From: Acidimicrobiales bacterium
Lineage (GTDB): Bacteria; Actinomycetota; Acidimicrobiia; Acidimicrobiales; SZUA-35
Assembly (NCBI GenBank): GCA_020630195.1
Contig: JAHDBV010000008.1
Coordinates: 877-64,876 of the forward strand
Direction of reading: 5' to 3'
Length of the DNA stretch: 64,000 nucleotides
Of this stretch, positions 1 through 47,613 are shown in pieces. Below the pieces are notes generated by a model, which was given only the letters and a program-made list of their open reading frames with translations, was not told where the DNA came from and ran no database searches. The translations under genes and the position numbers were made by a program. How positions within the stretch are numbered: position 1 is the first letter of the stretch; each line of letters starts with the position of its first letter.

Positions 1-977
1 CTCGTGAGATCGGGGAAGGTCGCCGGCGACACCGCCGCCTCGCCCTCGGGCAGTTCGCGTACCTCGGCGATCTTGCCGATCACCTTGTGCCCGGGCAGGT
101 GCCCACCCGTGCCGGTCTTCGCGCCCTGACCGAACTTGAAGTGGAAGGCCTGCACGTCGCGGACCTTGTCGAGGCTCCACCCGAACCGTCCCGATGCGAG
201 TTCGTAGAAGTACCGGGAGTTCTCGGCCTGCTCCTCGGGCAACATGCCGCCTTCGCCCGAGCAGATGCCGGTGCCGGCCATCTCGGCGCCCTTCGAGAGG
301 GAGATCTTCGCTTCCTCGGACAGGGCGCCGTAGGACATGTCCGACACGAAGATCGGGATGTCGAGCTCGAGGGGCTTCGCGGCGTTGGGGCCGATCACGA
401 CCTTCGAGGCGACCTCGGCCTCGTCGAGCAGGGGACGGCGGGCGAGTTGGGCGGTGACGAACTGGATGTCGTCCCACGACGGCACCTGATCGCGGGCGAC
501 GCCCATCGCCGTCGTCGGGCCGTGGTGGCCGAGTTTCGAGAGACCGTCGCCGGCCAGCTTGCGGATCAGGGCGACGTGGGGTTCGTCGGGCGTGCCGTGT
601 ACGTCCTGATAGGCGCCCTGGTAGGCGTCCCGGTTGTAGGGCTGCGGGTTCTCCGCCTCCCAGGCCAGCAGCTCGTCGAGGTCGATCAGCAGGTCGTCAC
701 CCTCGAGCCACGCGGTGAACTTCGGAAGCTGCTCGGCGTTGTTGTAGGCCGAGATGCCGGTGTCGAACCGGTAGTCCCAGCCGTGCACCCCGCAGATGAG
801 GTCCTGCCCGGCGACGTGGCCGTCGGCGAGGGGAGCGCCCCGGTGCAGGCACCGCCCGTAGAGCACCGACGGTGTGTCGTCGGCGCGGACGATGACGAGG
901 TCGACGTTCGACACGAGCACCCCGACGGGCTCACGGTCGGGGACGTCGGTCCAGGTGGCGATCTTGTGTGGCTGCAT
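1..977 (-). CDS. Rieske [2Fe-2S] domain fused to a glutamate-synthase-like FMN domain (GltB central-domain family); 3' end lies beyond the window start
   Basis: Absent from the ORF track because there is no stop inside the window. My own minus-strand translation from the ATG at 977 (GGGGA RBS-like a few nt upstream) reads MQPHKIATWTDVP...GRCLHRGAPL...LICGVHGWDYRF (Rieske CxH...CxxH). It continues ...IPIFVSDMSYGALSEEAKISLSKGAEMAGTGICSGEGGM...FHFKFGQGAKTGTGGHLPGHKV (glutamate synthase FMN-domain signatures). Third codon positions are G/C rich. Confidence 0.8.
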   Translation of the reverse strand, partial: MQPHKIATWTDVPDREPVGVLVSNVDLVIVRADDTPSVLYGRCLHRGAPLADGHVAGQDLICGVHGWDYRFDTGISAYNNAEQLPKFTAWLEGDDLLIDLDELLAWEAENPQPYNRDAYQGAYQDVHGTPDEPHVALIRKLAGDGLSKLGHHGPTTAMGVARDQVPSWDDIQFVTAQLARRPLLDEAEVASKVVIGPNAAKPLELDIPIFVSDMSYGALSEEAKISLSKGAEMAGTGICSGEGGMLPEEQAENSRYFYELASGRFGWSLDKVRDVQAFHFKFGQGAKTGTGGHLPGHKVIGKIAEVRELPEGEAAVSPATFPDLT

Positions 978-1017
978 GTGGTCCCCTTGGTTCGCAGCGG
1001 TGAACGTCGTGTCGGGC

Positions 1018-2103
1018 TCAGAACTTCCCGGAGTTCGACGTGTCGGACGCATCGGGCAACGGTTCGACGTTGTCCCAGTGCTCGACGATCATGCCGTCGG
1101 CGAGCCGGAAGATGTCGAAGGCCGCGTAGCCGATCCCGTTCCACACCTGGTGGGCGAGGGTGACGACCATGTCGCCCTGCCCGACGATGCGGTGGATCTT
1201 CTCGTAGTAGAGCGTCTCGCCCGCCTCGCGGCTGCGTCGGTCCATCTCGATCAGCGCCTCGACACCGTCGGGGGCGTCGGGGTTGTGGTTGATGTAGGTC
1301 TCCGACGAGATGAAGTCGGTGAAGGGGGCGGTCGGCTCGGCGCAGAAGGCCTCGGTCATGAAGCGGCGGACGTGGTCCTTGTTCTGCTCGGTGAGGTGCA
1401 GATCGGTGATCTCGGTCGTGCCGTCGATCTGGGTGTGGCCGGCCGGGTTCGTGCCGCCGAGTGCGGCGATCACGTCCCAGTGTTCGATGATCTTGCCGTT
1501 GCCGTCGGTGTCGAACAGGTCGGTGGTGACCCAGCGGGCCTCGCCGTTGTTGAGGTCCTGGGCGGCCTGGACGAAGACGAACCGTCCGTCGACGAGCGAG
1601 CGGACGATCTCGATGTCGCGTACGGCGTTCTTCTCGATGAAGGGCTCGAAGAACTCGACGAACCCCTCGACCCCGTCGCGGACGCCGGTCGAGTGCTGGG
1701 TGTAGCGGTCGCCGGTGTAGGTCTCCACCGCCCGGCGGGCGTCGCCGTCACGGATGCCCTCCATGTACAGGCGGGTGGCGTTGGCGAGACCGGGCGAGGC
1801 GGCCGAGGCGATCTCGACCTCACGGCGCATCTCCATGGTCTCGGCATCCATGAGCGCGAGGAAGTCCTGTGTGGCCTCGGCGGTCATGAACGAGCCCATG
1901 GAGGCGTCCGCGTCGTGGGCCGAGTCCCACCGCAGCGAGATCGTCCACGTGCCGTCCTCGGCGATCGTCGTGACACGGGAGCCGGCGTTGTAGCCGGGCT
2001 GGAGGGGGAGGTAGTCGGCTTCGACCCGGGCGTTGGCGGCGGCGAAGGCCTCGGCTGAGGTTCCCTCCGCCAGTCGGAGCGTGATGGTTTCGATGACGGC
2101 CAT
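1018..2103 (-). CDS. ABM-like N-terminal domain plus two SnoaL/NTF2-like domains (polyketide-cyclase-like fold protein)
   Basis: 361-aa ORF with balanced composition. Repeated ...EHWD... SnoaL-like modules (IIEHWDVIAALGG and MIVEHWDNVEP). Lies upstream of, and on the same strand as, the Rieske-GltS-like gene (40-nt gap). Confidence 0.75.
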   Translation of the reverse strand: MAVIETITLRLAEGTSAEAFAAANARVEADYLPLQPGYNAGSRVTTIAEDGTWTISLRWDSAHDADASMGSFMTAEATQDFLALMDAETMEMRREVEIASAASPGLANATRLYMEGIRDGDARRAVETYTGDRYTQHSTGVRDGVEGFVEFFEPFIEKNAVRDIEIVRSLVDGRFVFVQAAQDLNNGEARWVTTDLFDTDGNGKIIEHWDVIAALGGTNPAGHTQIDGTTEITDLHLTEQNKDHVRRFMTEAFCAEPTAPFTDFISSETYINHNPDAPDGVEALIEMDRRSREAGETLYYEKIHRIVGQGDMVVTLAHQVWNGIGYAAFDIFRLADGMIVEHWDNVEPLPDASDTSNSGKF

Positions 2104-2312
2104 GGGCCGAACCTACGAGCGGTGCTCCGTGCCGGGAAGGTCACGGCCCGACGGTGTGTGGTCGAAACCGGACAGGTCGTCGTCGGACGTCCCGGAGGTG
2201 GATTCCGGTCACGCCGGGCGCGCCCGATCGGCGGCGGCGAGACTGCCGAGGGAACGAACCCGGCATGTGGCCGGTTCGTGCCGATGCAGCGTCGAGCCCG
2301 GAGAGATCGCCC

Positions 2313-4262
2313 ATGACCAGCCCCGCCCCCGCCGACCACGAGTGGCACCACATCCTCGGACCGGACGACCTGCCGGAGGGTCGGGTGACCACGGTGCACG
2401 TCGAGCATCACACCTACGCCGTCACCCACCACGAGGGCCGCTACGGGGTGCTCGACAACCGCTGCCCGCACCAGGGCGGCCCGCTCGGCGAGGGCTCGAT
2501 CGAGAACGGGCATCTGCGGTGCCCGTGGCACGGCTACGACTACGACCCGACCACCGGCGAGCCCCCGCCGCCGTTCGATGACGCGCCCGCCTGCTTCGCC
2601 ACCGAGGTCCGGGACGACGGTGTCTGGGTCGCGCTGCCGACGCCGTCCGCCCCGCCTCGCACGGCCAGCGACGTCGTGGTCGAGACGATGGTCGACTTCG
2701 GTGTCGACACCGTCTTCGGCATGGTCGGGCACTCGAACCTGGGTATGGCCGACGCGATGCGCCACGCCGAGGACCGGGGAGACCTCCGGTTCTTCGGGAT
2801 CCGCCACGAAGGCGCCGCCGCGTTCGCCGCCTCGGCGTACGGGAAGTTGACCGGTCGGCCGGGGGCCTGTTTCGGCATCGCCGGACCGGGCTCCACCAAC
2901 CTGCTGACGGGCCTCTACGACGCGAAGGTCGACGGCGCACCGGTGCTCGCGATCAGCGGCCAGGTCCCGTCGCCTTCACGAGGCCGCGGTGCCTTCCAGG
3001 ACCTCGATCTGTCCGCGGCGTTCAACGACGTGGCGGCGTTCTCCGAGACCCTCTACCCCGCATCGGATCACGCCGAGTTGACGAGCCTGGCCTGCAAGAC
3101 GGCGATCGTCGAGCGGACCGTGGCGCATCTCGTGCTGCCCGACGACGTGCAGACGATCCCGTCGGACGCCGCGGCCGGCACGGCCGTCGGACGCGTCGTC
3201 GAGCGGGCCATGCCGCCGGTCGCCGATGCCCTCCGGGACGCCGCGGCACGTCTGGCCGCCGCCGAGCGGCCCACCTTCATCGTGGGTGCGGGGGCCCGGG
3301 ACGACATGGCCGAGATCATCGAACTCGCCGAACACGTCGGTGCACCGATCGCCACCACGTTCAAGGCCAAGGGGCAGATCAGCGACAACCACCCGCTCGG
3401 CTGTGGCGTGCTCGGCCGCAGCGGCACGCCGGTGGCCAGTTGGTTCATGAACGAGAGCGACCTGCTCGTGGTGTTCGGGGCCTCGTTCTCGAACCACACC
3501 GGTATCAGCTCCTACAAGCCCATCATCCAGATCGACGACGATCCGATGGCGCTCGGCCGATTCCACCCCGTCGAGATCCCCGTGCTCGGCAACGCCGCAC
3601 TCACCGCGGCGGCGCTGCGGGGAGCGGTCCCGGCCGACGGAGGCGTCGATCGGCGGCCCGAGGTGGCCGAACGCTGGGCGATCTGGCGTGAGGAGAAGGC
3701 ACGCCGTCGGGTCGACGACAAGGGGCACGGACTCTCGGCGGCGGCGATCTTCGAGTCGCTCGGCGGGGAGATCGCCGACGACGCCGTGATCTGTGTCGAC
3801 GTCGGCAACAACACCTACAGCTTCGGCCGGTACTTCGAGGTCGCCGACCAGACGGTGCTGATGTCGGGCTACCTCGGATCGATCGGGTTCGGGTTCCCGG
3901 CGGCGATGGGCGCCTGGGCCGCGCTCGGGACCGAACGCCAGATCGTGTCCGTCAGCGGCGACGGCGGCTTCGGGCAGTACGCCATGGAGCTGAGCACCGT
4001 CGCCAAGTACGGCATGAACCTCACCCACGTCGTGCTCGACAACCACGAACTCGGCAAGATCAGCAAGGAACAACGAGACGCCGACTTCGACGTCTGGCAG
4101 ACGAGCCTCCACAACCCCGACTTCGCGTCGATGGCGGAGCTGTTCGGTGTCGACGCGCACCGGGTCACCACCGCGGATGAGCTCGCTCCCGCCCTGCGGG
4201 CCGCCTTCGACCACGTCGGCCCGTCACTCGTCGCCATCCAGCAGGATGTGACCCTCCTCTGA
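2313..4262 (+). CDS. Rieske [2Fe-2S] domain fused to a thiamine-diphosphate enzyme of the pyruvate oxidase / acetolactate synthase family
   Basis: In frame with ORF 2154..4262. The ATG at 2313 is preceded by GGAGAG. The N-terminus carries NRCPHQGGPL...LRCPWHGYDYD (Rieske). The rest shows the TPP-enzyme N, central and C modules: GIRHEGAAAFAASAYGKLTGRPGACFGIAGPGSTNLLTGLYDA... and SVSGDGGFGQYAMEL...VVLDNHELGKI (GDG-x-N TPP-binding motif). Confidence 0.85.
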   Translation: MTSPAPADHEWHHILGPDDLPEGRVTTVHVEHHTYAVTHHEGRYGVLDNRCPHQGGPLGEGSIENGHLRCPWHGYDYDPTTGEPPPPFDDAPACFATEVRDDGVWVALPTPSAPPRTASDVVVETMVDFGVDTVFGMVGHSNLGMADAMRHAEDRGDLRFFGIRHEGAAAFAASAYGKLTGRPGACFGIAGPGSTNLLTGLYDAKVDGAPVLAISGQVPSPSRGRGAFQDLDLSAAFNDVAAFSETLYPASDHAELTSLACKTAIVERTVAHLVLPDDVQTIPSDAAAGTAVGRVVERAMPPVADALRDAAARLAAAERPTFIVGAGARDDMAEIIELAEHVGAPIATTFKAKGQISDNHPLGCGVLGRSGTPVASWFMNESDLLVVFGASFSNHTGISSYKPIIQIDDDPMALGRFHPVEIPVLGNAALTAAALRGAVPADGGVDRRPEVAERWAIWREEKARRRVDDKGHGLSAAAIFESLGGEIADDAVICVDVGNNTYSFGRYFEVADQTVLMSGYLGSIGFGFPAAMGAWAALGTERQIVSVSGDGGFGQYAMELSTVAKYGMNLTHVVLDNHELGKISKEQRDADFDVWQTSLHNPDFASMAELFGVDAHRVTTADELAPALRAAFDHVGPSLVAIQQDVTLL

Positions 4263-17019: not shown

Positions 17020-19503
17020 TCAGCTGCGGGGCCGCTCGTGGTCGGGGTCGTAGATCCCGTGGGCGTGACGGACGGCGGGGGCGTCGACTCCCCATGCGTC
17101 GATCGTGAAGCCGTCCATCCGATCGGCGAAGCGGCCCTCGACATAGCCGAGGCAGACCCGTTCGCCGGTCCGGAAGCCCATCGAGGCCGATGTCACGAAC
17201 CCGGCCAGCTCACCATCGACGCGGATCGGGGCCGACGGTGGCGGATCGCCGGCCGGTCCCGGGGCACCCGAGACGTCGACGGTCCAGGTCCCGTAGCTCC
17301 AGTCGGGCACCCGGTCGGCCAGCGCGGCGGCGGCCGCCCGACCGATGAAGTCGGGCTTGGTGAGATCGACGAACCGCTCGATGCCGACGTCGAACGGGGT
17401 GTACTCGACGCCGAACTCGCTGCCCCAGCCGTGATAGCCCTTCTCGACCCGCATGGCGTTGAGTGCGTAGGAGCCGAAGTCGCGGAGGCCGAGGTCGGCG
17501 CCGGCCTCGTGCAACGCCTCGTAGAGGGCGACGAGATCGCCGTCGTCGACGTGGAGCTCCCAGCCGAGTTCGCCGACGAAGCTCACCCGGAGTGCGGTGC
17601 ACACGACGCCGGCCACGGTGATCTCCCGAACCGACATCCAGGGCGCCGCCTCGCGTGACAGGTCGTCGTCGCTCAGCCGTTCGAGCAGGGTGCGCGACGA
17701 CGGCCCCATGACCATGAGGGTCGACGTGTGCCGGGTGCCGAGGCGGACCTCGACGTCGTCGGCGAGACCCACGTGGCGCTGCAGCCAGTCGAGATCGCGC
17801 TCGCGGGCCGCGGTGGGGCCGAGGAGCAGGAAGTGGTCGTCGGCGAGGCGGGCGATGGTCGCCTCGGTCCACACCGTGCCGTTCGGCCGGAGGAAGTAGG
17901 AGAGTCGGACCCGACCGACACCCGGCAACCGGGTGCACGTCATGCGGTCGAGGAAGGCCGCCGCATCGGGCCCCGAGACCTCGAACCGGGTGAACCCGCC
18001 GTGGTCCATCACCCCGACACCGTCCCGCACGGCTCGGCACTCCTCGGCCACGACGTCGTGCCAGTGCTCGTCCCGGTAGCTGAGGGTCTCGTGGGCGTAC
18101 TCGTCCGAGCCGAACCAGAAGGCCCGCTCCCAGCCGGCGATCTGTCCGAACCGGGCACCCTTCGCGGCGAGGGTGTCGTAGAGCGGGGTCTGCTGCACCG
18201 GGCGGGCCGTGGTCCACATGCGGTGCGGGAACGGGGCGCCGTACTGGTGCTCGTACATCTCCCGGACCCGGGCGTTCGGGTAGCTGTCCCGGCCCGATCC
18301 GGCGGTCGCCCAGGCGCCGAAGCGGCGCGGGTCCCACGGCCAGACGTCCCACTCGGTGTCGCCGCCCGTGATCATCTCGGTGAGCACCTTGCCGGCGGCC
18401 GCGGCGTGGGTGATGCCGATCTGGACACCGACGGCCTGGTACCAACCGTCGACCCCGGCCACCGGTCCGATGAGCGGGTTCATGTCGGGGGTGTAGGTGA
18501 TGGGTCCGTTGACGAACTCGGCGATGCCGACCTCGCCGAGGATCGGGACGTGGGCCATCGCCTGTTCAGCGACCTCGACGATGCCGTCGGTGTCGGCGGC
18601 GAAGAGCGACGAATCGAACACGTCGGGCCGGCCGTTCTCCCAGACCGTGCGGCCCTCGTGGCCGTAGTTGCCGAACAGGAAGCGGTCGTTCTCCTGGCGC
18701 AGGTAGAACATGATCTCCGGGTCCCGGACGAGCGGGAACGGTTCGGTCAGCTCGTCGAGCTGTGGCACCGCGCCGGTGACGAGGTACTGGTGCTCGAGCA
18801 CGGCCAGTGGGGCGTCGATCCCGGCCATGGCGGAGATGTCGGCGCCGTAGAAGCCGGCGGCGTTGATCACGATGTCGGCCTCGATCGTGCCCGGACCCGC
18901 CGAGCTGTCGACATGCACCCGCCAGCGGGCGTCGTCGCCGGGGCCGAGTCGGTCGATGCCGACCACACGGGTGTGGCGTCGCACCGTCGCGCCGAGCGCA
19001 CGTGCCCGCCGAGCGAAGCCCTGGGTCAGTCCACTGGGATCGATGTCGCCTTCGTAGGGGTCGAGCAGGCCGGCGATGACGGTGCCGTCGTCGTCCCAGA
19101 ACGGGTGCATGTCGGCCATCTCGGTGGGCGAGACGATCTTGAGGTCGAACCCGAGGCCGGTGGAGATGGCGACGAGATGATGGAAGTGGTCGAGGCGTTC
19201 GGGGGTGTGCCCGGGCCAGAACGCCTTGGTGTGGCGGTAGGTGATCGGGTCGTCGGGGTCGTCGGCCAGTTCGGAGTAGAGCCGCCACGCGTAGTTTCCG
19301 GCCCGTTGGCCCAGCCACGAGTTGGAGAAGGTCGGCACGTTGCCCGCGGCGTGCCAGGTCGACCCCGAGGTGAGTTCGTGTTTCTCGAGCAGCACCGCAT
19401 CGGTGCGGCCCGCTTCGGCGAGGTGCCAGAGAATCGAGGCGCCGACGGCACCACCGCCGATGACGACGATCTCGTGCCGGGCGTCGGTCGAGGGGGCACT
19501 CAC
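17020..19503 (-). CDS. FAD-dependent oxidase fused to a GcvT-type folate-binding aminomethyltransferase domain (dimethylglycine/sarcosine dehydrogenase family)
   Basis: 827-aa ORF. N-terminal dinucleotide motif VVIGGGAVGAS. The C-terminal half shows the GcvT-like pattern (…GYHGWGSEF…). The GTG start overlaps the MttB stop (GTGA). Confidence 0.9.
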   Translation of the reverse strand: MSAPSTDARHEIVVIGGGAVGASILWHLAEAGRTDAVLLEKHELTSGSTWHAAGNVPTFSNSWLGQRAGNYAWRLYSELADDPDDPITYRHTKAFWPGHTPERLDHFHHLVAISTGLGFDLKIVSPTEMADMHPFWDDDGTVIAGLLDPYEGDIDPSGLTQGFARRARALGATVRRHTRVVGIDRLGPGDDARWRVHVDSSAGPGTIEADIVINAAGFYGADISAMAGIDAPLAVLEHQYLVTGAVPQLDELTEPFPLVRDPEIMFYLRQENDRFLFGNYGHEGRTVWENGRPDVFDSSLFAADTDGIVEVAEQAMAHVPILGEVGIAEFVNGPITYTPDMNPLIGPVAGVDGWYQAVGVQIGITHAAAAGKVLTEMITGGDTEWDVWPWDPRRFGAWATAGSGRDSYPNARVREMYEHQYGAPFPHRMWTTARPVQQTPLYDTLAAKGARFGQIAGWERAFWFGSDEYAHETLSYRDEHWHDVVAEECRAVRDGVGVMDHGGFTRFEVSGPDAAAFLDRMTCTRLPGVGRVRLSYFLRPNGTVWTEATIARLADDHFLLLGPTAARERDLDWLQRHVGLADDVEVRLGTRHTSTLMVMGPSSRTLLERLSDDDLSREAAPWMSVREITVAGVVCTALRVSFVGELGWELHVDDGDLVALYEALHEAGADLGLRDFGSYALNAMRVEKGYHGWGSEFGVEYTPFDVGIERFVDLTKPDFIGRAAAAALADRVPDWSYGTWTVDVSGAPGPAGDPPPSAPIRVDGELAGFVTSASMGFRTGERVCLGYVEGRFADRMDGFTIDAWGVDAPAVRHAHGIYDPDHERPRS

Positions 19504-21002
19504 GTGGATGGCTCCAGATGGATCGGGAAACGGGTGCGGATGGCGGCCTCGGCATCGACGGCGAGGTGGTCGGGTCGGCCGCCGGCGAGGACGTCACGCA
19601 CGCGGGCCGCGGCGAGGTCCCAGAGTTCGGGCGAGCCGGCGGCGACCCATTCGTCGACGGAGCGACGGTCGCCGAGGCCCGGGTAGACGTACTCGGACCG
19701 CATGAGCTCGAGGGTCTGCGCCTGGCCGAGGTAGTGACCGTCGCCGGTGACGACGTCCTCGACGATGGCGAGATCGAGATAGCCGGGATCGACCTCGACG
19801 CCGCGCACGCTGCGCAGGATCGCGCCGCACATGTCGTCGTCGATGACGAGGCTCTCGGGGCTCGCCACCATGATCGAGCCGAGCATGCCGACCGAGAGCT
19901 GGACCATGTCGGCCCCGGCCTGGGCCGACAGCGCGACCGTGTAGCCCTTCTCGTAGCCGGCCTGGCTGTCGGCGGTCTTGGCGTCGGTGATGCCCGCCGA
20001 CACGGCGTGGGGCAGGTCGAGATCGCGCAGCAGCTGGGCGGCGGCGGCGCTCGTGACCGCCGCTTCGCCACTGCCGCCGGTCATCGCCCCGCTGCGCAGA
20101 TCGGAGATGAACGGCATGAACGCGTGGATGCAGGGATGGCCAGGCCGGATGGCATCGGCGAGCACGACCCCGGCGAGGATCTCGGCGAGACCCTGGGCCA
20201 ACGATCCGGCGAGCGACGGCGGGCTGGTCGCACCGGCCTGGCCGGCCGAACAGGTCTGGATCACCATGCCGCGCTCGATCGCCCGCTCCATGATCTCGCA
20301 CCCCTCCGGCGAGAAGCGCAGTGGCGGCACCACGTGGACGACGACGGCCATCGAGAACGGTTGGCGGGCGAAGGCTCCCTCCGAGCCGAGGGCGACGTCG
20401 AAGAGGTCGACGACGGGGTCGACGGTGTCGACCGAGGTGAAGCTCACCCCGGTCGGCTTGGAGGTGGCGGCGGTGATGGCGAAGGCCGTGTTGAGGTCGA
20501 GTTCGAGCGGGTCGACGACGTCGCGGGCGACGAGTGTACGGAGCCCGTAGTGGATGTTCGGGCTCGTATCGAGCACCCGCATCATCGACCAGAGGTCACC
20601 GAGCTCGGAGTCCCGGAAGCCGCCGGTCTCGGCGTCGAGCACACGGACCGCTGCGCCGCCCGTGCCGACGTGCACATGGCCACCGCCGACGGTGAGCCCG
20701 CGATCGGCGGTGAATCCGGGCAGGTCGACGCGGGACGGGGCTCGTTCGAGCGCGGCCTCGACGACGGCACGGGGGAACAGGAGTCGACCGTCGTGGCGTT
20801 CGGTGGCGCCGGCGGCGAGCAGGCGGTCCCGGGCGGCCGGGGGAGCGTCGGCCATGCCGATCGTCGCGAGGATGTCGAAGGCGTGGTCGAGGACGGCGTC
20901 TCGGTGCGGATCCGACAGCGGGCGATACGCACCGCCCCTGGGCGGGGCCGTGATCGGCGGCGGCCCGGCCGGTTCGCGACGCCGGCGTCCCGCGCGGCTC
21001 AA
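19500..21002 (-). CDS. MttB-superfamily methyltransferase, non-pyrrolysine member (quaternary-amine/trimethylamine methyltransferase family)
   Basis: 500-aa uninterrupted ORF, apparently with a TTG start. It has the basic N-terminus (SRAGRRRRE...) and overall pattern of the MttB family (…FDILATIGM…VGTGGAAV…SAGQAGATSP…AGADMV…). There is no in-frame TAG. Confidence 0.85.
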   Translation of the reverse strand: MSRAGRRRREPAGPPPITAPPRGGAYRPLSDPHRDAVLDHAFDILATIGMADAPPAARDRLLAAGATERHDGRLLFPRAVVEAALERAPSRVDLPGFTADRGLTVGGGHVHVGTGGAAVRVLDAETGGFRDSELGDLWSMMRVLDTSPNIHYGLRTLVARDVVDPLELDLNTAFAITAATSKPTGVSFTSVDTVDPVVDLFDVALGSEGAFARQPFSMAVVVHVVPPLRFSPEGCEIMERAIERGMVIQTCSAGQAGATSPPSLAGSLAQGLAEILAGVVLADAIRPGHPCIHAFMPFISDLRSGAMTGGSGEAAVTSAAAAQLLRDLDLPHAVSAGITDAKTADSQAGYEKGYTVALSAQAGADMVQLSVGMLGSIMVASPESLVIDDDMCGAILRSVRGVEVDPGYLDLAIVEDVVTGDGHYLGQAQTLELMRSEYVYPGLGDRRSVDEWVAAGSPELWDLAAARVRDVLAGGRPDHLAVDAEAAIRTRFPIHLEPST

Positions 21003-21143
21003 CGCTCGGTCCTCTGTCGGATGGGCGGCTGCCGGTCGGAGCCGGGGTGGGAGCTGACCAAGACGGATGATCCTGCCACGGTCACCCGAGCGACGGCGGG
21101 TTTCGGTACGCCGGTCATCACACTGCGGAAGCCCGGCGCCGAC

Positions 21144-22079
21144 TCAGGCGAGGTACGGCGTCGCCGGGTTGATCAGGCCCGGTCGCAGCTCGTATGCCTC
21201 GGTCGGGCCCCACGTGCCGGCGTCGGGGTGGCTGCCCCGGACCTCGTCGATCTCGAGGACGAGCGTCCGGGTCGAGTACTCGTCGGCGGCCGGTGACGCC
21301 TCGACGCGGCCCCGGCCGGTCAGATGCAGGGTGCGACCCGTCGTGGGGTCGAACGTCATGACGCCGAGCCGGTCGTCGAGCAGCAGGTTGCCGAGCGTCT
21401 GGAACATGCCGTTGCCGGTGTAGTCGGGCATCGAGATGGTCCGGTCGTCGACGACCGTGACGAACCCTGGCGGGCCGCCCCGGTGGGTCGGATCGACCCC
21501 GTGGCGTTCGTGGAAGCTCGCGAGGAACACCATGTCGGTCGCGGCGAGCTGATCGCAGTCGTCGGCCGAGAGCCGCTCGTCGCGACGCCCCGGCCGGCCA
21601 GCGGCGCTCGACGGTCGTTCCGGGTCGTGGTCGCGCTTCGCGATGTACTTGTTGCAGAGGCCGAAGTTGCGGTGCATGCGGTAGGTGATGCCGCCGCGGG
21701 CGTCGACCTCGGCCATGCCGAGCGACTTCGCCCTCCGCCGACGCGACGGCTCGAAGTAGAGGACGCCGAGGTGGCCGGTGGCGGCGATCGCCGGGATCAG
21801 CGGGTCTCCGTCGACCCGTGCCGTCGAGATGCCCACCGTCGTCGGGTCGAGCACGGTGAACAGCTCGCCGGCCCGCCCGAAGAACGGGGAGGCCCACGCT
21901 CTGCCGTCGGCGTCGATGGAGGCGCCGACGGAGAAGGTGCGTCCCGACACGAAGCGGACCTCGTTGTCGCTCAGCTCGGGCCGGAACGCCTCGTCGACCA
22001 TGCGATCGAAGGCGACCGTGTCGACCCCGGACTCGGCCTGGATCCGGGCTTCACCCTCGTGGAAGTTCCGCAGCGTCAT
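21144..22079 (-). CDS. pyridoxamine 5'-phosphate oxidase-like FMN-binding split-barrel protein
   Basis: 311-aa ORF. Shows FHEGEARIQAESGV...MVFLASFHERHGVDPTHRGGPPGFV...YTGNGMFQTLGNL, the PNPOx-like pattern. Confidence 0.7.
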   Translation of the reverse strand: MTLRNFHEGEARIQAESGVDTVAFDRMVDEAFRPELSDNEVRFVSGRTFSVGASIDADGRAWASPFFGRAGELFTVLDPTTVGISTARVDGDPLIPAIAATGHLGVLYFEPSRRRRAKSLGMAEVDARGGITYRMHRNFGLCNKYIAKRDHDPERPSSAAGRPGRRDERLSADDCDQLAATDMVFLASFHERHGVDPTHRGGPPGFVTVVDDRTISMPDYTGNGMFQTLGNLLLDDRLGVMTFDPTTGRTLHLTGRGRVEASPAADEYSTRTLVLEIDEVRGSHPDAGTWGPTEAYELRPGLINPATPYLA

Positions 22080-22111
22080 GGTCCGACGCTACGTCGGCGT
22101 GGTCGGTGCCG

Positions 22112-23032
22112 TCAGTCGTCGCCCAGCACGACGGCGGCGATCGCGACGTCCTGGGCGGCGATGCCGGTGAGATCGGCGACGGTGCGTTGCCCCGCGGTGG
22201 TCCGACCCCGCGCGGTGCCCGCCAACACGGCGCCGAGTTCGACCACCGCCGCGGTCGGCGGCAGCATCGAGCACTCGCCGTGATCACGACACTGGACCAC
22301 GCTGTCGGCCACGACGAGCTCGGCGGCGGCCAGCAGATCGGGGGAGAGTTCGTGTTTGCCCGGGGCGTCGGCTCCGACCGCCGTGATGTGGGTGCCCGGG
22401 CGGATCATGGCGGCGTCGAGCAGCGGCTCGGTGGCGGCGGTGACGGTGGCGATCACGTCGGCCTCGGCGCAGGCCGAGTCGAGATCGGGGGCGACCGAGG
22501 CATCGTTGCGGGCCGCCACCTCGGCGGCCCGGGAGGCCGAGCGACCCCACACCCGCACCTCGTCGAGGTGGGGGAGGAGGGCACGGTGCCAGCGGATCTG
22601 CTGGTCGGCCTGGATGCCGGTGCCGACCACGAGCAGGCGGGTGGCGTCGGGCCGGGCGAGTGTCCGGGAGGCGACGGCGCCACCGATGCCGGTGCGCACG
22701 TCGGTCAGGGTCATCTCGTCGTGCAGCACCGCCCGCACCTCACCCGTGCGGGCCGACAGCACGATCGAGGCGCCGTTGTTCACGGGCGGACCGGTCGGGT
22801 CGTCGCGATTGCCCGGGAATCCGGTGGCGATCTTCACGACGAACACGTCGTCTCCCCGTCGGTGCCCGATCTTCACGTGGCAGTCACCGCCCACAGCGTC
22901 GAAGACGAGATGCCCCACCGGCGGGAGCTGGACCTCGCCGCGGCTCGCCGCCACGTAGGCGGCCTCGACGGCGGCGGCCGCCCGGTCCGGGTCGAGTCGT
23001 CGGGCCAGCTCGTCCCGGTCGAGCACGATCAC
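22112..23032 (-). CDS. ornithine cyclodeaminase / mu-crystallin family protein
   Basis: 306-aa ORF. Shows ...LTDVRTGIGGAVASRTLA...LLVVGTGIQA (Rossmann)...ITAVGADAPGKHEL. The GTG start overlaps the upstream stop (GTGA). Confidence 0.85.
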   Translation of the reverse strand: MIVLDRDELARRLDPDRAAAAVEAAYVAASRGEVQLPPVGHLVFDAVGGDCHVKIGHRRGDDVFVVKIATGFPGNRDDPTGPPVNNGASIVLSARTGEVRAVLHDEMTLTDVRTGIGGAVASRTLARPDATRLLVVGTGIQADQQIRWHRALLPHLDEVRVWGRSASRAAEVAARNDASVAPDLDSACAEADVIATVTAATEPLLDAAMIRPGTHITAVGADAPGKHELSPDLLAAAELVVADSVVQCRDHGECSMLPPTAAVVELGAVLAGTARGRTTAGQRTVADLTGIAAQDVAIAAVVLGDD

Positions 23033-24171
23033 GAGATCGTTCCCGCGTGGGCCTCGAGGTGGGCGGTCATCGCAGCGAGTCCCTCATCGAGGCCCCGGCG
23101 GCCGTAGCCGAGCCGGAACCGGTCGGTGATCGTCGGGCCGACGTCGGAGCGGTAGATCGACGACGGCAACAGCAGGACCCCGGCCTCCTCGACCAGGCGG
23201 CGACAGAACTCCTCGACACCGTCGGCGCCGAGATACCGGGGGAACCCCATGCAGGAGCCGTCGGGGCGGACCCACTCGAACCGGTCGGCGAAGCGAGCGA
23301 AGAAGGCGTCCCACTTCGGCAGGTTCTCGTCGATGATCCGGTTGTTGCGGGTGATGATCTCGTCCTTGTGCTCGAGGGCGATGATCGCCAGGCGTTCACT
23401 CGGGCCCGAGTTGCAGATCGAGGTGTAGTGCTTGAGCTTCTCCATCCGCGCCAGCAGCTCCCGGTCCTTCGAGGCGATCCAGCCGATGCGCAGCCCCGGC
23501 AGGCCCATCGACTTCGACGTGACACCGAGCGAGAGCCCACGTTCGTAGACATCCGCGACGAACGGCAGATGCTCGGTCCCGGTCGGGCCGAGTCCATGGA
23601 AGATCTCGTCGTGCAGCAGGTGGATGCCGTGGTGGCGGCAGAGCTCGACGAGGGCGTCGTAGCGATCCCTCGGCAGGATCGTGCCGGTCGGGTTGTGGGG
23701 GAAGTTGATCGTGAGGAGCCGGGTCGACGGGCGGATCTCGGCCGCGACGCGATCGATGTCGAGCGACCAGCCGTCGTCGGGGTCGAGTGGCACACCACTC
23801 ACCGAGCCGAGTGCGCCGGGCAACGACTCGTGGCTCTGGTAGTTGGGGGTGACGACGATCGCATGGGCGTCGGGGTCCATGAGCACGGCGTTGGTGGCGA
23901 AGATGCCCTCACTCGCCCCGGCGAAGCACAGGACCTCACCCGGCTCGATGTCGTCGTAGGTGGCGGCGATCGCCTCCCGCAGGTCGGGTGCGCCCCAGGT
24001 CTCGGTGTAGCCGAGCCACATGTGCTCGAAGGCGTGGCGCTGCTCGTCGGTGGCGAGGGCGAGCAGGTCGGCGAGCGACATCGCCTCGGCGTCGGAGGCG
24101 GTGAGGTGGTGCTCGGCGGCGAACTCCCACCGCGCGAAGTGGGTCTCGAGACGGAACTCGGGGAGCTGCAT
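23029..24171 (-). CDS. PLP-dependent aminotransferase, class I/II fold
   Basis: 380-aa ORF. Shows ...NFPHNPTG... and ...SKSMGLPGLRIGW (PLP lysine region). Confidence 0.85.
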   Translation of the reverse strand: MQLPEFRLETHFARWEFAAEHHLTASDAEAMSLADLLALATDEQRHAFEHMWLGYTETWGAPDLREAIAATYDDIEPGEVLCFAGASEGIFATNAVLMDPDAHAIVVTPNYQSHESLPGALGSVSGVPLDPDDGWSLDIDRVAAEIRPSTRLLTINFPHNPTGTILPRDRYDALVELCRHHGIHLLHDEIFHGLGPTGTEHLPFVADVYERGLSLGVTSKSMGLPGLRIGWIASKDRELLARMEKLKHYTSICNSGPSERLAIIALEHKDEIITRNNRIIDENLPKWDAFFARFADRFEWVRPDGSCMGFPRYLGADGVEEFCRRLVEEAGVLLLPSSIYRSDVGPTITDRFRLGYGRRGLDEGLAAMTAHLEAHAGTIS

Positions 24172-33394: not shown

Positions 33395-35035
33395 ATGCTG
33401 ACCGTCTACCCGGCCCGCCGCATCCACACCATGAACCCGTCGTTGCCCGAGGCGACGGCGGTGGTGGTGCGTGACGGCACCATCGTCGAGGTCGGCACGA
33501 TGGACACCATCCGGCCGTGGCTCGATGCGCACCCCCACGAGATCGACACGGCCTTCGCCGACAAGATCCTGTTCCCGGGGTTCATCGACCCGCACCTGCA
33601 CCCCTCGCTCGCCGCGACGTTGCTGCCGATGCACTTCATCACGGCCATGCCGTGGCGACTCCCGGATCGGGACGTGCCCGCCACCCGCGGCCACGAGGCG
33701 TTCCTCGACGAACTCCGGCGACTCGACGCCACCGAGCCCGCCGGCGAGCCCGTGTTCACCTGGGGCTACCACGAGTTGTGGCACGGCCGGATGCATCGCT
33801 CGATGCTCGACGCCATCAGCACCGACCGGCCGATCATCGTGTGGCAGCGGTCGTTCCACGAGATCTTCATGAACGTCGCGGCGATGCGCCACTTCGAGCT
33901 CGACATGACCCGACTCGAGGCGCACCCCCAGGTCGATGTCGCCGCCGGACGGTTCTACGAGAACGGCATGTACGTGGGTGCGGTGGCCATGAGCGGTCAT
34001 CTCAACGACCACGACCGCTTCCGCCACGGGCTCGCCCTCGCCAAGGCGGCGGTCCACCAGGGTGGTCACACCACCATCGGTGACCTCACCGGCTCCCAGT
34101 TCGACACCGACGTCGAATGGGCGGCGCTCGACGAGGTGCTCGGCGGAGACGACACCCCGTTCCGTGTCCAGATGATCCCGGCGGGCGCCCGGACGCTGCG
34201 CAACGAGGACGACCGGAACGACCCGGCGGGCTGGCTCCGACGAACCGCCGAGCGTCGCGGCTCGGACAAGCTCTACTTCCGGAACAACGTGAAGCTCTTC
34301 ACCGACGGTGGCTTCTACGCCCAGCTGATGCGGGTCCGTCCACCCGGGTTCATCGACGGCCACCAGGGCGAGTGGATGATCGCTCCCGAGCAGTTCGAGG
34401 AGCTGGCCCGCGGGTTCTGGAACGCCGGGGCCCAGATCCACGTGCACTGCACCGGCGACATGGGTGTCGAGCTCGCGATCGACGTGCTCGCGAAGCTCCA
34501 GTGGGAGCGGCCCCGGTTCGACCACCGCTTCACGATCGAACACCTCGGTCTGTCGAACCCCGAGCAGATCCGGCGGTTGCGGGAGCTCGGCGGCCAGGCA
34601 TCGGTGAACGTCTACTACGTACATGAACTCGGCGATGCGTACTGGACCCACTCGGTCGGCCACGAGCGGGCCTCCCAGATGGCTCGCGTCGGGACGTGCG
34701 TGCGCGAAGGCGTGACCACGGCGCTGCACTCCGACTTCACCATGGCGCCCGCCCGGCCACTCACGAGTGCATGGGTCGCGGTCAACCGACTCGGAGAACA
34801 CGGCGAGGTGCTCGGCCCCCACGAGCGCATCAGTGTGCACGAGGCGATGCGGACCATCACCTGCGACGCCGCTCGCGTGCTCGGCATGGAGGATCGGATC
34901 GGTTCGATCCGTGCGGGCAAGTCGGCCGACTTCACCGTGCTCGAGGCCGACCCCTACGAGATCGATCCGCTCGAGCTCGCGGACATCCCGATCTGGGGCA
35001 CGGTCTTCGAAGGCACACCCCACCCGCTCGCGTGA
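33395..35035 (+). CDS. metal-dependent amidohydrolase (Amidohydro_3 / YtcJ-like)
   Basis: ATG at 33395 in ORF 33263..35035. Shows GFIDPHLHP (HxH metal motif), ...HVHCTGD..., ...ALHSDF..., ...GSIRAGKSADF. Confidence 0.85.
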   Translation: MLTVYPARRIHTMNPSLPEATAVVVRDGTIVEVGTMDTIRPWLDAHPHEIDTAFADKILFPGFIDPHLHPSLAATLLPMHFITAMPWRLPDRDVPATRGHEAFLDELRRLDATEPAGEPVFTWGYHELWHGRMHRSMLDAISTDRPIIVWQRSFHEIFMNVAAMRHFELDMTRLEAHPQVDVAAGRFYENGMYVGAVAMSGHLNDHDRFRHGLALAKAAVHQGGHTTIGDLTGSQFDTDVEWAALDEVLGGDDTPFRVQMIPAGARTLRNEDDRNDPAGWLRRTAERRGSDKLYFRNNVKLFTDGGFYAQLMRVRPPGFIDGHQGEWMIAPEQFEELARGFWNAGAQIHVHCTGDMGVELAIDVLAKLQWERPRFDHRFTIEHLGLSNPEQIRRLRELGGQASVNVYYVHELGDAYWTHSVGHERASQMARVGTCVREGVTTALHSDFTMAPARPLTSAWVAVNRLGEHGEVLGPHERISVHEAMRTITCDAARVLGMEDRIGSIRAGKSADFTVLEADPYEIDPLELADIPIWGTVFEGTPHPLA

Positions 35036-36012
35036 CCCCGCCCATCCCGCTCACCCTGATCGGGGGCTACCTCGGGGCCGGCAAGACGACGCTCGTCAAC
35101 AGCCTGCTCGCCGGTGGCCACGGCCTCCGGCTCGCGGTGCTCGTGAACGACTTCGGCGAGGTCGACATCGACGGGCGACTCGTCGTCGCCCACGACGGTG
35201 AGACCTACACGCTCGCCAACGGCTGCATCTGCTGCAGCTTCGGTGACGACCTGGGCGAGACGCTGCGGGGCATCGCCCGGGCCGACGATCCGCCCGATGC
35301 GGTGATCGTCGAGGCCAGTGGTGTCGCGGACGCCCGCCGACTGGCCGCGTCGACGGGGGAGTGGTTCGGCTTCGAGCACCACGCCACCCTCGTGCTCGCC
35401 GATGCCGAGACGGTGCGGGCCCGGTCCGAGGACCCCTACGTCGCCGATCTCGTACGGAGCCAGCTCGCCGGCGCCGATCTCGTCGTGCTCAACAAGGTCG
35501 ATCTCGTGGCCGAGTCGGACGTCGACGAGCTGCTCGCCTGGTGCCGCTCCATCGGGGTCGACGGACCGATCCTGCCGACGACGAACGGCCGTGTCCCGAT
35601 CGAGGTCCTCACGTCGGTGCCGGCCGGGCGGTCGCCGGTCGATCGGGTCCACGACGACCACCACGTCCCGTTCTCGTCCGTCGTGGTGCGCCCCACCGGC
35701 CCGTGGCGTCGAACGCAGCTCGAGGCCGCGCTCGCCTCGTTGCCACCGGAGGTCGTCCGGGTGAAGGGATTCGTCGATCTCGACGACGACGGCGTCGGCC
35801 GACGGGTCGTGGTGCAGCTCGCCAGCCGCCGCACCCGGATCACCGACGCACCCGACCGGTCGGCGGCCGGGGGCGATGCGGACGACGAGCCCGTCCTCGT
35901 CGTGATCGCCGTTGGTGACCTCGATCCAGCGGCGCTCGCCGCGGCGCTTCCGGACTCGACGATCGCTCGACGCCCCGGTCGTCCCGACTCGTTCCTGTCC
36001 GCGGAGGTCTGA
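35032..36012 (+). CDS. COG0523 / CobW-family G3E P-loop GTPase (metallochaperone family)
   Basis: GTG at 35032 overlaps the amidohydrolase stop (GTGA). Carries the Walker A motif GGYLGAGKTTLVN, the GCICCS metal-binding CxCC motif, LNKVDL, and a His-containing linker (VHDDHHV). Confidence 0.85.
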   Translation: MTPPIPLTLIGGYLGAGKTTLVNSLLAGGHGLRLAVLVNDFGEVDIDGRLVVAHDGETYTLANGCICCSFGDDLGETLRGIARADDPPDAVIVEASGVADARRLAASTGEWFGFEHHATLVLADAETVRARSEDPYVADLVRSQLAGADLVVLNKVDLVAESDVDELLAWCRSIGVDGPILPTTNGRVPIEVLTSVPAGRSPVDRVHDDHHVPFSSVVVRPTGPWRRTQLEAALASLPPEVVRVKGFVDLDDDGVGRRVVVQLASRRTRITDAPDRSAAGGDADDEPVLVVIAVGDLDPAALAAALPDSTIARRPGRPDSFLSAEV

Positions 36013-38119: not shown

Positions 38120-38205
38120 CGCTGCGAGGATAGATGCGCGTTGTGCATGAATGCGGTGTGGTAGATGCGCTGGACACATTGGATCACCTCGGGGAGGCTG
38201 AACGC
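38120..38205. promoter_or_regulatory. divergent promoter / candidate LysR operator region
   Basis: This is the least GC-rich stretch of the neighbourhood. It contains ATGC-N7-GCAT (38134-38148, fitting the LTTR T-N11-A pattern), GCATGAATGC (38145-38154), and a 9-nt direct repeat TAGATGCGC at 38131 and 38162 (31 nt apart). Confidence 0.45.
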
Positions 38206-39195
38206 ATGGGCATCGCCGTTCCGTTTCCCGACACCCAACCCGCCGGCTACGAGTGGCTCGACGACGAGCCGCCGTTCGATCCGGCGCGGCACCTGCAGCT
38301 CGAGGCGCCATCGGAGATCGTGATGCTCGCCGATCTCGGCTACGACGACGCCGAGATCGCCACGAAGGCCACCCCGGTCGCCGCGTCGAGCCCGTTCCGG
38401 GTCCTGAGCGATGAGGGGGCCGAGATCCTGCTCGCCACGGCCCGTCAGCTCCGCGGGTTCGTGAGCCCGGCCAACGATCGCATCGAGAACATGCTGCGAG
38501 GCGCCTGCTATCGGTCACGGTGGCTGCGGGATCTCTGCATCAGCCAGGAGGTCAGCGATCACCTGGAGGCCGTCTACGGCATCGAGATCGCTCCGCATCC
38601 GATGCCGTTGCACCTCGGGCACATGAACTTCGAACCGAACCGGATCGACACGGCCATCGACAAGTGGCACCACGACACCCTCCCGCTCGACTTCGTGCTG
38701 ATGGTCACCGACCCGGCCGACGTCGACGGGGGGCGATTCCAGTACTTCACCGGCACCAAGGCCGAAGCGGCCGAGCTCGCCGCCCGGGGCGAGACACCGC
38801 CGGACGACCGCGTGGTGACGCCGGAGTTCCCCGGGCCCGGCTACGCCATCGCCCTGCACGGCGACATGGTGGTGCATCGAGCGGGCCCGCTGGCGACCCT
38901 CGCCGAGCGCATCTCGCTCGTGAACGGCTACGTCGCGCTCGACACGAGCGTCGACGAGCAGAGCCGCTCGGCCGATCTGATCTCGGTCGACGATCCGAAC
39001 GCGCTGTACACCGAGTGGGCGAAGATGGCGGCGTGGCGCTCCGGTGATCGTCTCCGCCGCCTCGTCGACGACCTGCCGTTCACCGACGACAAGGACGTCG
39101 TGATCGACCGGCTGTCGGACGCGATCGCCGAGGCCCAGGCCGCGGTCGAGCAGATGCGGGCCGGTGAGGCTCGCCTCGAGCACTACGGAGGCTGA
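38206..39195 (+). CDS. hypothetical protein with Fe(II)/2-oxoglutarate-oxygenase-like motifs
   Basis: The ATG at 38206 is preceded by GGGAGG. KWHHDTLPLD (HxD) and ...ALHGDMVVHRAG...RISLVNGY (distal His / Arg) suggest a double-stranded beta-helix oxygenase. The family is not firmly recognised. Confidence 0.65.
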   Translation: MGIAVPFPDTQPAGYEWLDDEPPFDPARHLQLEAPSEIVMLADLGYDDAEIATKATPVAASSPFRVLSDEGAEILLATARQLRGFVSPANDRIENMLRGACYRSRWLRDLCISQEVSDHLEAVYGIEIAPHPMPLHLGHMNFEPNRIDTAIDKWHHDTLPLDFVLMVTDPADVDGGRFQYFTGTKAEAAELAARGETPPDDRVVTPEFPGPGYAIALHGDMVVHRAGPLATLAERISLVNGYVALDTSVDEQSRSADLISVDDPNALYTEWAKMAAWRSGDRLRRLVDDLPFTDDKDVVIDRLSDAIAEAQAAVEQMRAGEARLEHYGG

Positions 39196-47169: not shown

Positions 47170-47613
47170 GTGGCCGTGCACCAGCTCGAGACCAACGTCG
47201 ACGACATGGACCCGCGCCTGTGGCCCGGGGTGCTCGACGCGTTGCTGGCGGCCGGCGCACTCGACGCCTGGCTGGTCCCGATCACGATGAAGAAGGGCCG
47301 TCCGGCCTTCACCCTCTGTGCCCTGGTCGACGACGCCCGACTCGACGCCGTCGCCGAGGCGGTGTTCGCCGAGACGACCACGATCGGTCTGCGGCATCAC
47401 GAGGTGGCCCGGCGGGTGCTTCGGCGCGAACCCGGCGCCGTCACCGTCGGGGGTGAGTCGATCTCGACCAAGACGTCGTCGCTCGACACCGGCCGCTCCC
47501 ACACGAGCGTCGAGTGGGACGACGTCCGGGCCGCCGCCGATCGGCTCGGCCTGTCGGCTCGCGACGTGCTCCGGGCGGCCGAGGCGGCCGCCACCCCGGG
47601 GGCCGGCCGATGA
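47170..47613 (+). CDS. larC2: LarC C-terminal half (LarC2) of the nickel-pincer cofactor nickel insertase
   Basis: 147-aa ORF with a GTG start. It begins VAVHQLETNVDDMDPRLWPGVLDALLAAGALDAW...MKKGRP..., which matches the C-terminal domain of DUF111/LarC. It ends with an ATGA overlap into larE. Confidence 0.8.
   Translation: MAVHQLETNVDDMDPRLWPGVLDALLAAGALDAWLVPITMKKGRPAFTLCALVDDARLDAVAEAVFAETTTIGLRHHEVARRVLRREPGAVTVGGESISTKTSSLDTGRSHTSVEWDDVRAAADRLGLSARDVLRAAEAAATPGAGR

Follow-up and report, generated by a model that had tools for sequence, protein, structure and literature searches.

A tightly coupled MttB-family methyltransferase and DMGDH-like gene pair proposed to demethylate a quaternary amine in aerobic marine bacteria

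A 64,000-nucleotide stretch from an Acidimicrobiales bacterium (GenBank assembly GCA_020630195.1, contig JAHDBV010000008.1, positions 877 to 64,876 of the forward strand; hereafter, the window) carries on its minus strand a row of five genes, among them one for a non-pyrrolysine methyltransferase of the MttB superfamily and, overlapping its end, one for a protein resembling dimethylglycine dehydrogenase (DMGDH). The row raises two questions: whether all five genes serve one pathway, and how an MttB homologue could work with no corrinoid protein encoded beside it. An earlier note on this DNA, made from the sequence alone, had proposed stepwise demethylation of a quaternary amine by the two enzymes, with the cyclodeaminase and the aminotransferase processing the amino-acid skeleton. 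Comparison of related loci showed that the conserved unit is the MttB and DMGDH-like pair alone, that the two genes are tightly coupled, and that this is well supported. With moderate confidence, we propose that the pair is a mobile two-gene cassette, in which a distinct clade of MttB proteins and then a DMGDH-type enzyme demethylate a quaternary amine, with the other partners encoded in trans.

The evidence for the pair comes from a scan of one genome per GTDB species with an alignment of 14 clade members, which returned 331 relatives, the best 80 loci being kept. The MttB identities at these loci were 58–81%. The group at 70–81% consists of Acidimicrobiia metagenome-assembled genomes (MAGs), many of them from sponges or other marine hosts (Poriferisodalis, Aldehydirespiratoraceae and SB06xx bins), and the group at 58–67% includes Ruegeria, Roseovarius, Halocynthiibacter, Hyphomicrobiales, Kiloniellales, Gammaproteobacteria and Dehalococcoidia. 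Counts on the pair were made over 82 MttB-centred loci, with neighbours detected by tblastn of the window proteins. A DMGDH-like gene (at least 50% identity) lay downstream of mttB on the same strand in 76 of the 82; at the other six the contig stops 246–1322 nt past mttB, so the partner was present at every one of the 76 loci with enough downstream sequence. The linkage also holds in reverse, as mttB was found immediately upstream of the genes for all four partner-clade proteins that we took from a separate homology search.

In the window, the start codon of the DMGDH-like gene lies on the mttB stop codon in a GTGA overlap at 19500–19503, as seen by direct inspection of the sequence. A partner start codon at −4, giving the same overlap, is available in at least 39 of the 49 Actinomycetota loci, and the Proteobacteria usually have a 1.1-kb insert inside the pair, made up of an SRPBCC gene and an Amdase/EutA-like gene. 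Two DMGDH-like paralogues stand in series at some loci (for example, on a plasmid of Alisedimentitalea scapharcae and in Defluviimonas), and no MttB–DMGDH fusion protein was found in about 80 loci. One complete chromosome of 3.47 Mb (locus L172, 5372–6906) has its MttB as two open reading frames (ORFs) of 168 and 354 aa beside an intact DMGDH-like gene, and the split may come from a frameshift in the sequencing or mark a pseudogene. Locus L002 (3595–7203), like L051 and L052, has a further, different MttB paralogue that adjoins an Oxidored_FMN and Pyr_redox_2 flavoprotein of the trimethylamine-dehydrogenase or N-methylproline-demethylase type. The design of this paralogue is again MttB plus a tertiary-amine demethylase, but from another flavoenzyme class.

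The partner has the four-domain architecture of DMGDH, dimethylglycine oxidase and sarcosine dehydrogenase (SARDH; compare rat 4PAA, human 5L46 and Arthrobacter 1PJ5), including a GcvT-type tetrahydrofolate (THF) domain, and all four Pfam domains were detected (Table 1). It matches rat and human DMGDH with E-values of 8e-144 and 3e-143, respectively, at about 40% identity over the full length. The histidine motif for covalent FAD is present as STWHAAG, a sequence that recurs unchanged at the aligned position of rat DMGDH, and in human DMGDH the flavin is attached at His91 (DMGDH structure paper). It differs from these enzymes in belonging to a distinct bacterial clade that is always beside this MttB clade. 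We propose that it is a DMGDH/SARDH-family N-demethylase that uses FAD and THF, and predict that it catalyses the second demethylation step.

So close a likeness to the mammalian enzyme (E-value about 1e-143) brings up a familiar pathway, namely an aerobic glycine betaine (GB) route in which an MtgB-type GB methyltransferase is followed by a dimethylglycine dehydrogenase and, where a second paralogue is present, by a sarcosine dehydrogenase. Some partner-clade proteins have been named "dimethylglycine dehydrogenase" by JGI, and an MttB followed by two DMGDH-like genes is what the conversion of GB via dimethylglycine and sarcosine to glycine requires. GB is ubiquitous in the sea, and GB-demethylation genes are often co-located in marine bacteria. 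We nevertheless consider this route unlikely, given the features of the methyltransferase and of the genes that accompany the pair in other genomes.

Membership of the methyltransferase in the MttB superfamily (PF06253/COG5598) is clear, as the PF06253 match covers residues 24–489 and far exceeds the cutoff of 25 bits (Table 1). The clade profile matches MtgB (2qne/9yce) with an E-value of 1e-63 and MttB (7xcl) with 6e-55, both of which are solved TIM-barrel methyltransferases. The clade thus shares its superfamily and fold with the enzymes of the anaerobic non-pyrrolysine systems, i.e., MtgB (Desulfitobacterium hafniense), MtpB, MtcB, MtyB and MthB (Eubacterium limosum), as well as an aliphatic residue at the pyrrolysine position and a presumed chemistry in which a quaternary amine methylates Co(I). 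As the earlier note had reported, the 500-aa mttB ORF is uninterrupted, with no internal stop and no in-frame TAG. Ile338 occupies the column of Pyl334, where the 71 aligned clade members have Ile, Met or Val, and the TIGR02369 equivalog model of pyrrolysine-containing MttB (Pyl-MttB) scores 271.9 bits against a cutoff of 525. The protein resembles Methanosarcina barkeri Pyl-MttB (7XCL/7XCN) in its 30% full-length identity and in a conserved equivalent of Gly110, but identification as a trimethylamine methyltransferase of the pyrrolysine type was rejected on the codon, the Ile residue and the TIGR02369 score. Rfam PYLIS_3 matches were seen within TAG-less non-pyrrolysine mttB homologues, with 38.4 bits (at the gathering score) at locus L053 (11021–11120) and 27.2 bits in the window (19892–19991, minus strand); these reflect mttB coding-sequence homology rather than a recoding signal.

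The active site was compared in an alignment of the 71 clade members and three structural references. In MtgB, mutagenesis and a GB-bound structure identified Y97 and F356 (cation-pi) and R312 and H348 (carboxylate) as the GB ligands, and R312 is reported to be conserved in MtcB, MtpB, MthB and MtyB (PMC13080624). The four ligands are kept in none of the 71 clade members, in which Y97 is replaced by Gly or a gap, R312 by Ala, Thr or Ser, H348 by Leu (Gln) and F356 by Ile (Leu); the window protein has G116 or a gap, A333, L369 and I377 at these positions. By comparison, the Sinorhizobium meliloti homologue 4yyc, which is 44.6% identical to MtgB, keeps three of the four. The window protein is only 26.8% identical to 4yyc and 27.6% identical to D. 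hafniense MtgB, and is thus as distant from the latter as from Pyl-MttB. Membership in the MtgB group was rejected on the absence of the GB-binding residues.

Because the MtgB ligands are replaced in every clade member, the clade is unlikely to hold a carboxylate in the usual manner, and its mode of substrate binding is predicted to be unlike that of GB in Desulfitobacterium MtgB. Judged by identity and active-site residues, the clade appears to lie outside any characterised substrate group and to form an uncharacterised deep branch of the superfamily. The earlier note had allowed for the protein falling squarely into a known substrate clade; at 27–30% identity and with the GB ligands lost, it does not sit in one. 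What seems new here is an MttB clade about 27–30% identical to both MtgB and Pyl-MttB, with a divergent active site.

The genes that recur near the pair in other genomes also bear on the substrate. Among the 82 loci, these include genes for LysR (27), a class-III omega-aminotransferase (22–29), an aldehyde dehydrogenase (ALDH; 13–15), a TIGR03576-like pyridoxal phosphate (PLP) enzyme (10) and a D-glutamate-cyclase-like protein (9), and a HIBADH-like gene is also recurrent. The omega-aminotransferase is of the PRK06105 type (512 bits against a cutoff of 517), and the HIBADH-like protein scores 279 against 291. None of these accessory genes is adjacent to the pair in the window. The accessory proteins are 57–70% identical between Alphaproteobacteria and Acidimicrobiia, which implies that the whole cluster was probably transferred horizontally. 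In Ruegeria halocynthiae and Defluviimonas salinarum, phage-type integrases or a DDE transposase lie on the flanks of the cassette, which appears to be mobile. On the A. scapharcae plasmid (NZ_CP123586.1, 37208–66623), one operon comprises, in this order, genes for a HalD-like Fe/2-oxoglutarate (Fe/2OG) enzyme, an ABC transporter with a family-5 solute-binding protein (SBP), MttB and two DMGDH-like proteins; Defluviimonas also has the two DMGDH-like genes in tandem.

The tandem DMGDH-like genes and the accessory set fit a stepwise loss of three N-methyl groups to give a primary amine, followed by transamination and oxidation, and they fit GB poorly. The co-transferred genes for the omega-aminotransferase, the ALDH and the PLP enzyme would have no role in the conversion of GB to glycine. 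Transport of GB is expected to involve BCCT or OpuA/ProU types, whereas the only operon transporter seen with the pair is the family-5 SBP ABC system.

The chemistry of the proposed cassette, which we infer from the gene content, the overlaps, the conservation of the pair and the divergence of the active site, would begin with the clade MttB taking one methyl group off a quaternary (trimethylammonio) compound. By analogy with the family, the methyl group would pass to the Co(I) of a corrinoid protein. The co-translated DMGDH/SARDH-type flavoenzyme would then oxidatively strip the next N-methyl group or groups from the tertiary or secondary amine, with the one-carbon unit passing to THF as 5,10-methylene-THF. 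In other genomes, the primary amine product might be handled by the nearby aminotransferase and aldehyde dehydrogenase. The corrinoid protein, a methylcobalamin:THF methyltransferase and a reductive activase would be shared and come from genes at other sites in the genome, as is the case for the aerobic MtgBCD system. The stepwise route that the earlier note had put forward, from quaternary to tertiary amine by MttB and then by oxidative THF-linked N-demethylation, thus stands as the most economical reading of a tightly coupled pair. As a low-confidence guess, the substrate may be an omega-trimethylammonio compound of marine algae or invertebrates, i.e., an omega-betaine or an N-omega-trimethylated basic amino acid.

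A conventional anaerobe-type MttB operon, with adjacent genes for a corrinoid protein, a methylcorrinoid:THF or methylcorrinoid:CoM methyltransferase and a RamA activase, was rejected, as none of these adjoins the pair. The lack of an adjacent corrinoid gene had been presented as an open puzzle, but it has a published precedent in which MtgC and MtgD are distal and shared. In the aerobic Ruegeria pomeroyi, MtgB, MtgC and MtgD are encoded by dispersed genes (Mausz et al. 2025, PMC12478193), and mutants in mtgC (SPO2160, corrinoid protein) or mtgD (SPO1863, pterin methyltransferase) did not grow on glycine betaine. The same study describes a second role of MtgC and MtgD as a split methionine synthase, proposes that one MtgC/MtgD is common to up to seven pfam06253 paralogues per genome, and attributes about 5% of marine mtgC reads to Actinomycetota. 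The MttB and DMGDH-like cassette is present in Ruegeria and Roseovarius genomes too. We therefore favour, by precedent, the conventional explanation that the partners are probably supplied in trans.

The cassette and the MtgBCD(E) system of R. pomeroyi and other marine bacteria (PMC12478193) have in common that the pfam06253 methyltransferase belongs to an aerobic marine heterotroph, that its gene adjoins no corrinoid gene, and that downstream N-demethylases are often nearby. They differ in that the cassette methyltransferase is of another clade, with the GB ligands of MtgB absent, and is obligately coupled to one dedicated DMGDH-like gene, and in that the omega-aminotransferase and ALDH accessory genes point to a substrate other than GB. 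From the anaerobic non-pyrrolysine systems, the cassette differs in the residue equivalent to Arg312, in the lack of adjacent corrinoid, MtgA and RamA genes, in its aerobic hosts and in having a flavin- and THF-dependent oxidative demethylase as the next step.

Several observations weigh against the cassette as proposed. No corrinoid protein, pterin methyltransferase or activase is encoded in the window or in the 7 kb past its right end. A single one of the 82 loci encodes a corrinoid protein within 10 kb of the pair, and none a pterin methyltransferase. At this one locus the corrinoid gene is 8.4 kb upstream of the pair and codes for a stand-alone protein, in company with genes for a methyltransferase of the URO-D family and an iron-sulfur protein (CDGSH/Fer4_19); this trio occurs in two Acidimicrobiales MAGs (L084 8748–11343, the same as L035 24–2310; and L085). 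The best 120 homologues of the L035 corrinoid protein include none on the complete chromosomes that carry the pair, which is weak evidence as it covers close homologues only. As to the substrate, its class is inferred solely from neighbour genes that are not present in the window, and the carboxylate-binding Arg of the other characterised non-pyrrolysine members examined is absent here, so that even "betaine" is uncertain. Finally, the pair shares its strand with the other three genes of the row, with no detectable terminator, and may be co-transcribed with them. As separate observations, MAGs of Actinomycetia and Chloroflexi widely encode homologues of the L035 corrinoid protein, and no corrinoid gene of the A. 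scapharcae plasmid was among the best 60 of 149 matches.

Taken at face value, the missing genes would suit a corrinoid-independent mechanism, in which the MttB-like protein and its obligate DMGDH-like partner act directly, with no B12 protein. The two could form a complex in which the THF site of the partner receives the methyl group or the bound amine, or the MttB-like protein could be a substrate-binding or activating subunit. The obligate reciprocal linkage with its 4-nt overlap, in every informative locus, is in keeping with such a mechanism, as are the 81 of 82 loci with no corrinoid, pterin-methyltransferase or activase gene within 10 kb, the lack of any match on the carrier chromosomes among the top corrinoid homologues and an active site unlike that of all characterised corrinoid-dependent members examined. 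A precedent exists in the GcvT-fold enzyme DmdA, which passes an onium methyl group directly to THF. We regard this mechanism as very improbable all the same. All characterised MttB-superfamily enzymes methylate a corrinoid, and the clade retains the full-length TIM barrel, the C-terminal extension and an invariant Gly that aligns with Gly110 of MttB, which contacts the corrin at the rim in the MttB–MttC complex (PMC9842639); the invariant Gly is compatible with retained corrinoid docking and is no proof of it. In addition, the two proteins are never fused among the roughly 80 loci, Ruegeria, one of the genera with the cassette, is documented to have dispersed partner genes, and the failure to find corrinoid genes concerns local sequence only.

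Returning to the proposed cassette, the remaining question is whether the aminotransferase, ornithine cyclodeaminase (OCD)-like and PPOX-like genes upstream of it belong to the same pathway. Gene calls in the window were made from the ORF listing and codon-position GC, and domains were assigned with Pfam and NCBIfam. The five minus-strand genes are present exactly where the earlier note had placed them, in families backed by both databases (Table 1).

Table 1 The five genes of the minus-strand row, from 5' to 3' on that strand, with the domain matches that assign them.
Gene product	Coordinates	Strand	Domain match
Class I/II PLP-dependent aminotransferase-fold enzyme, 380 aa	23029–24171	minus	PF00155, 138.5 bits
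OCD/mu-crystallin family protein, 306 aa	22112–23032	minus	PF02423, 177.8 bits
PPOX/PNPOx-like flavoprotein, 311 aa	21144–22079	minus	PF01243, 31.8 bits, residues 178–272
Non-pyrrolysine MttB-superfamily methyltransferase (MTTB), 500 aa	19500–21002	minus	PF06253, 300.9 bits
DMGDH/SARDH-family protein, 827 aa	17020–19503	minus	DAO + FAO_M + GCV_T + GCV_T_C

The description of the row as joined by "4-nt overlaps or short gaps" was correct for two GTGA overlaps, the second of which, at 23029–23032, has the OCD start on the aminotransferase stop (also inspected directly), and for a 32-nt gap between the OCD and PPOX genes. The 141-nt gap between the PPOX and mttB genes is larger than the phrase suggests and is the weakest link of the row. 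Its folding was no better than that of shuffled sequence. The mttB gene starts with TTG, with GAGGA 8 nt upstream. Scans of the row found no sigma-70-like promoter and no coding-strand terminator, although such scans are weak for Actinomycetota.

This arrangement could be read as a single operon for the breakdown of a trimethylated amino acid of the diamino or cyclic kind, with all five genes taking part: MttB and the DMGDH-like enzyme would demethylate it, and the cyclodeaminase and the aminotransferase would process the skeleton, for example, from N-trimethyl-ornithine or N-trimethyl-lysine via Orn or Lys to Pro or pipecolate. The common strand, the two 4-nt overlaps, the gaps of 32 and 141 nt and the coding strand free of terminator-like sites agree with this, and an aminotransferase of some class is near the pair in many genomes. 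The A. scapharcae operon, besides its family-5 SBP ABC transporter, opens with the Fe/2OG enzyme of the HalD family, which acts on free Lys or Orn. The missing carboxylate-binding Arg near the N-methyl site would also agree with a substrate in which the carboxylate and the ammonium group lie far apart.

The distribution of the three genes is what makes a five-gene operon rather improbable in our assessment. By tblastn, homologues of the PPOX, OCD and aminotransferase genes were near the pair in 0, 1 (39% identity) and 0 of the 82 loci, respectively. A scan of marine metagenomes centred on the aminotransferase gave 80 close relatives (55–78% identity), with an OCD gene adjacent in 15 of the 80, MttB, DMGDH or PPOX genes in none, and an otherwise highly variable context. 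The aminotransferase that does recur near the pair elsewhere is the class-III PRK06105-type omega-transaminase, which is distinct from the class I/II enzyme of the row and whose best NCBIfam matches do not include models of Lys or Orn aminotransferases. A separate promoter for mttB could, moreover, fit in the 141-nt gap. Given the rarity of the three neighbours near the pair, we conclude that the row is a juxtaposition of independent modules and that the pair is the conserved unit; the OCD gene belongs to a separate module with the aminotransferase, apart from the pair, and all three genes are, in this genome, neighbours independent of it. The earlier idea of the five genes as one pathway unit did not hold.

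The annotations of the three neighbours are themselves broad. The OCD protein scores 270 against PRK06823 (cutoff 438), 195 against EutC (cutoff 472) and 113 against the PRK07589 OCD model (cutoff 350), so its membership appears to be at the PF02423 family level only, short of a true ornithine cyclodeaminase. The best NCBIfam matches of the aminotransferase (PRK07324, GntC and VioD) are all far below their cutoffs. In the PPOX-like protein, the PNPOx/PPOX match is confined to the C-terminal half, and TIGR04025 scores 70 against a cutoff of 170. Catabolism of the ectoine type was considered and rejected, as the weak EutC, EutA and DoeA-like matches are all far below cutoff; ectoine carries no N-methyl groups.

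The window has a GC content of about 70%, and its proteins match those of Acidimicrobiia MAGs best. Pfam scans of essentially all credible ORFs of the window found no B12-binding, pterin-binding or RamA-type proteins, and tblastn of the window with Escherichia coli MetH domains and an Acidimicrobiales corrinoid protein gave no match, which bears out the absence of a corrinoid protein, an MtgA-type methyltransferase and a RamA-type activase from the window. No cobalamin, THF or glycine riboswitch was found in the window or in four related loci. The sole gene with "cobalamin" in its name encodes a CobW/COG0523 GTPase (35035–36012, plus strand). Members of COG0523 are generic metallochaperones, and the gene was rejected as a sign of cobalamin metabolism.

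The surroundings of the row are rich in oxygenases (three PhyH proteins, Rieske, P450, LLM and fatty-acid hydroxylase), in line with the oxygenase-dominated setting described in the earlier note. The region at 12374–45922 forms an island of oxygenases and CoA chemistry, with three PhyH dioxygenases, a fatty-acid hydroxylase, two P450s, Rieske ring-hydroxylating oxygenase (RHO) alpha subunits, LLM monooxygenases, two family-III CoA-transferases, three AMP-ligases and amidohydrolases; a weak HalD-like match lies within it at 38134–39195. Two unusual Rieske fusions were seen outside the island: a Rieske [2Fe-2S] domain joined to a complete thiamine pyrophosphate (TPP) enzyme with TPP_N/M/C (2154–4262, plus strand), and a Rieske domain joined to a glutamate-synthase-like domain, in an ORF that runs past the window edge (3–1052, minus strand). 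A LarC/nickel-insertion protein is apparently split and permuted (47170–47613 and 49065–49832, both plus strand), with its C-terminal part (profile positions 245–374) upstream of its N-terminal part (2–234) and a 315-aa ORF with no Pfam match between the two. A kynurenine-pathway cluster at 60138–63594 (minus strand) encodes tryptophan 2,3-dioxygenase, an FAD monooxygenase and kynureninase, and a 3-hydroxyanthranilate dioxygenase gene lies just past the window end (L169 6770–7324).

Quaternary amines are major currencies of carbon, nitrogen and energy in the sea and in animal hosts, and few substrates of the MttB superfamily are known, nearly all of them from anaerobes. The clade described here is common among roseobacters and among Acidimicrobiia, both pelagic ones and those associated with sponges and invertebrates, and it brings its own predicted second-step demethylase. 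Since cultured carriers exist, i.e., Ruegeria sp. R14_0, Ruegeria haliotis, Roseovarius conchicola, Halocynthiibacter styelae and A. scapharcae, both the substrate and the dependence on B12 can be tested directly. A need of the clade for B12 would widen the demand of marine heterotrophs for cobalamin; without such a need, the cassette would represent new demethylation chemistry, namely, B12-free demethylation of quaternary amines in aerobic marine and sponge-associated bacteria.

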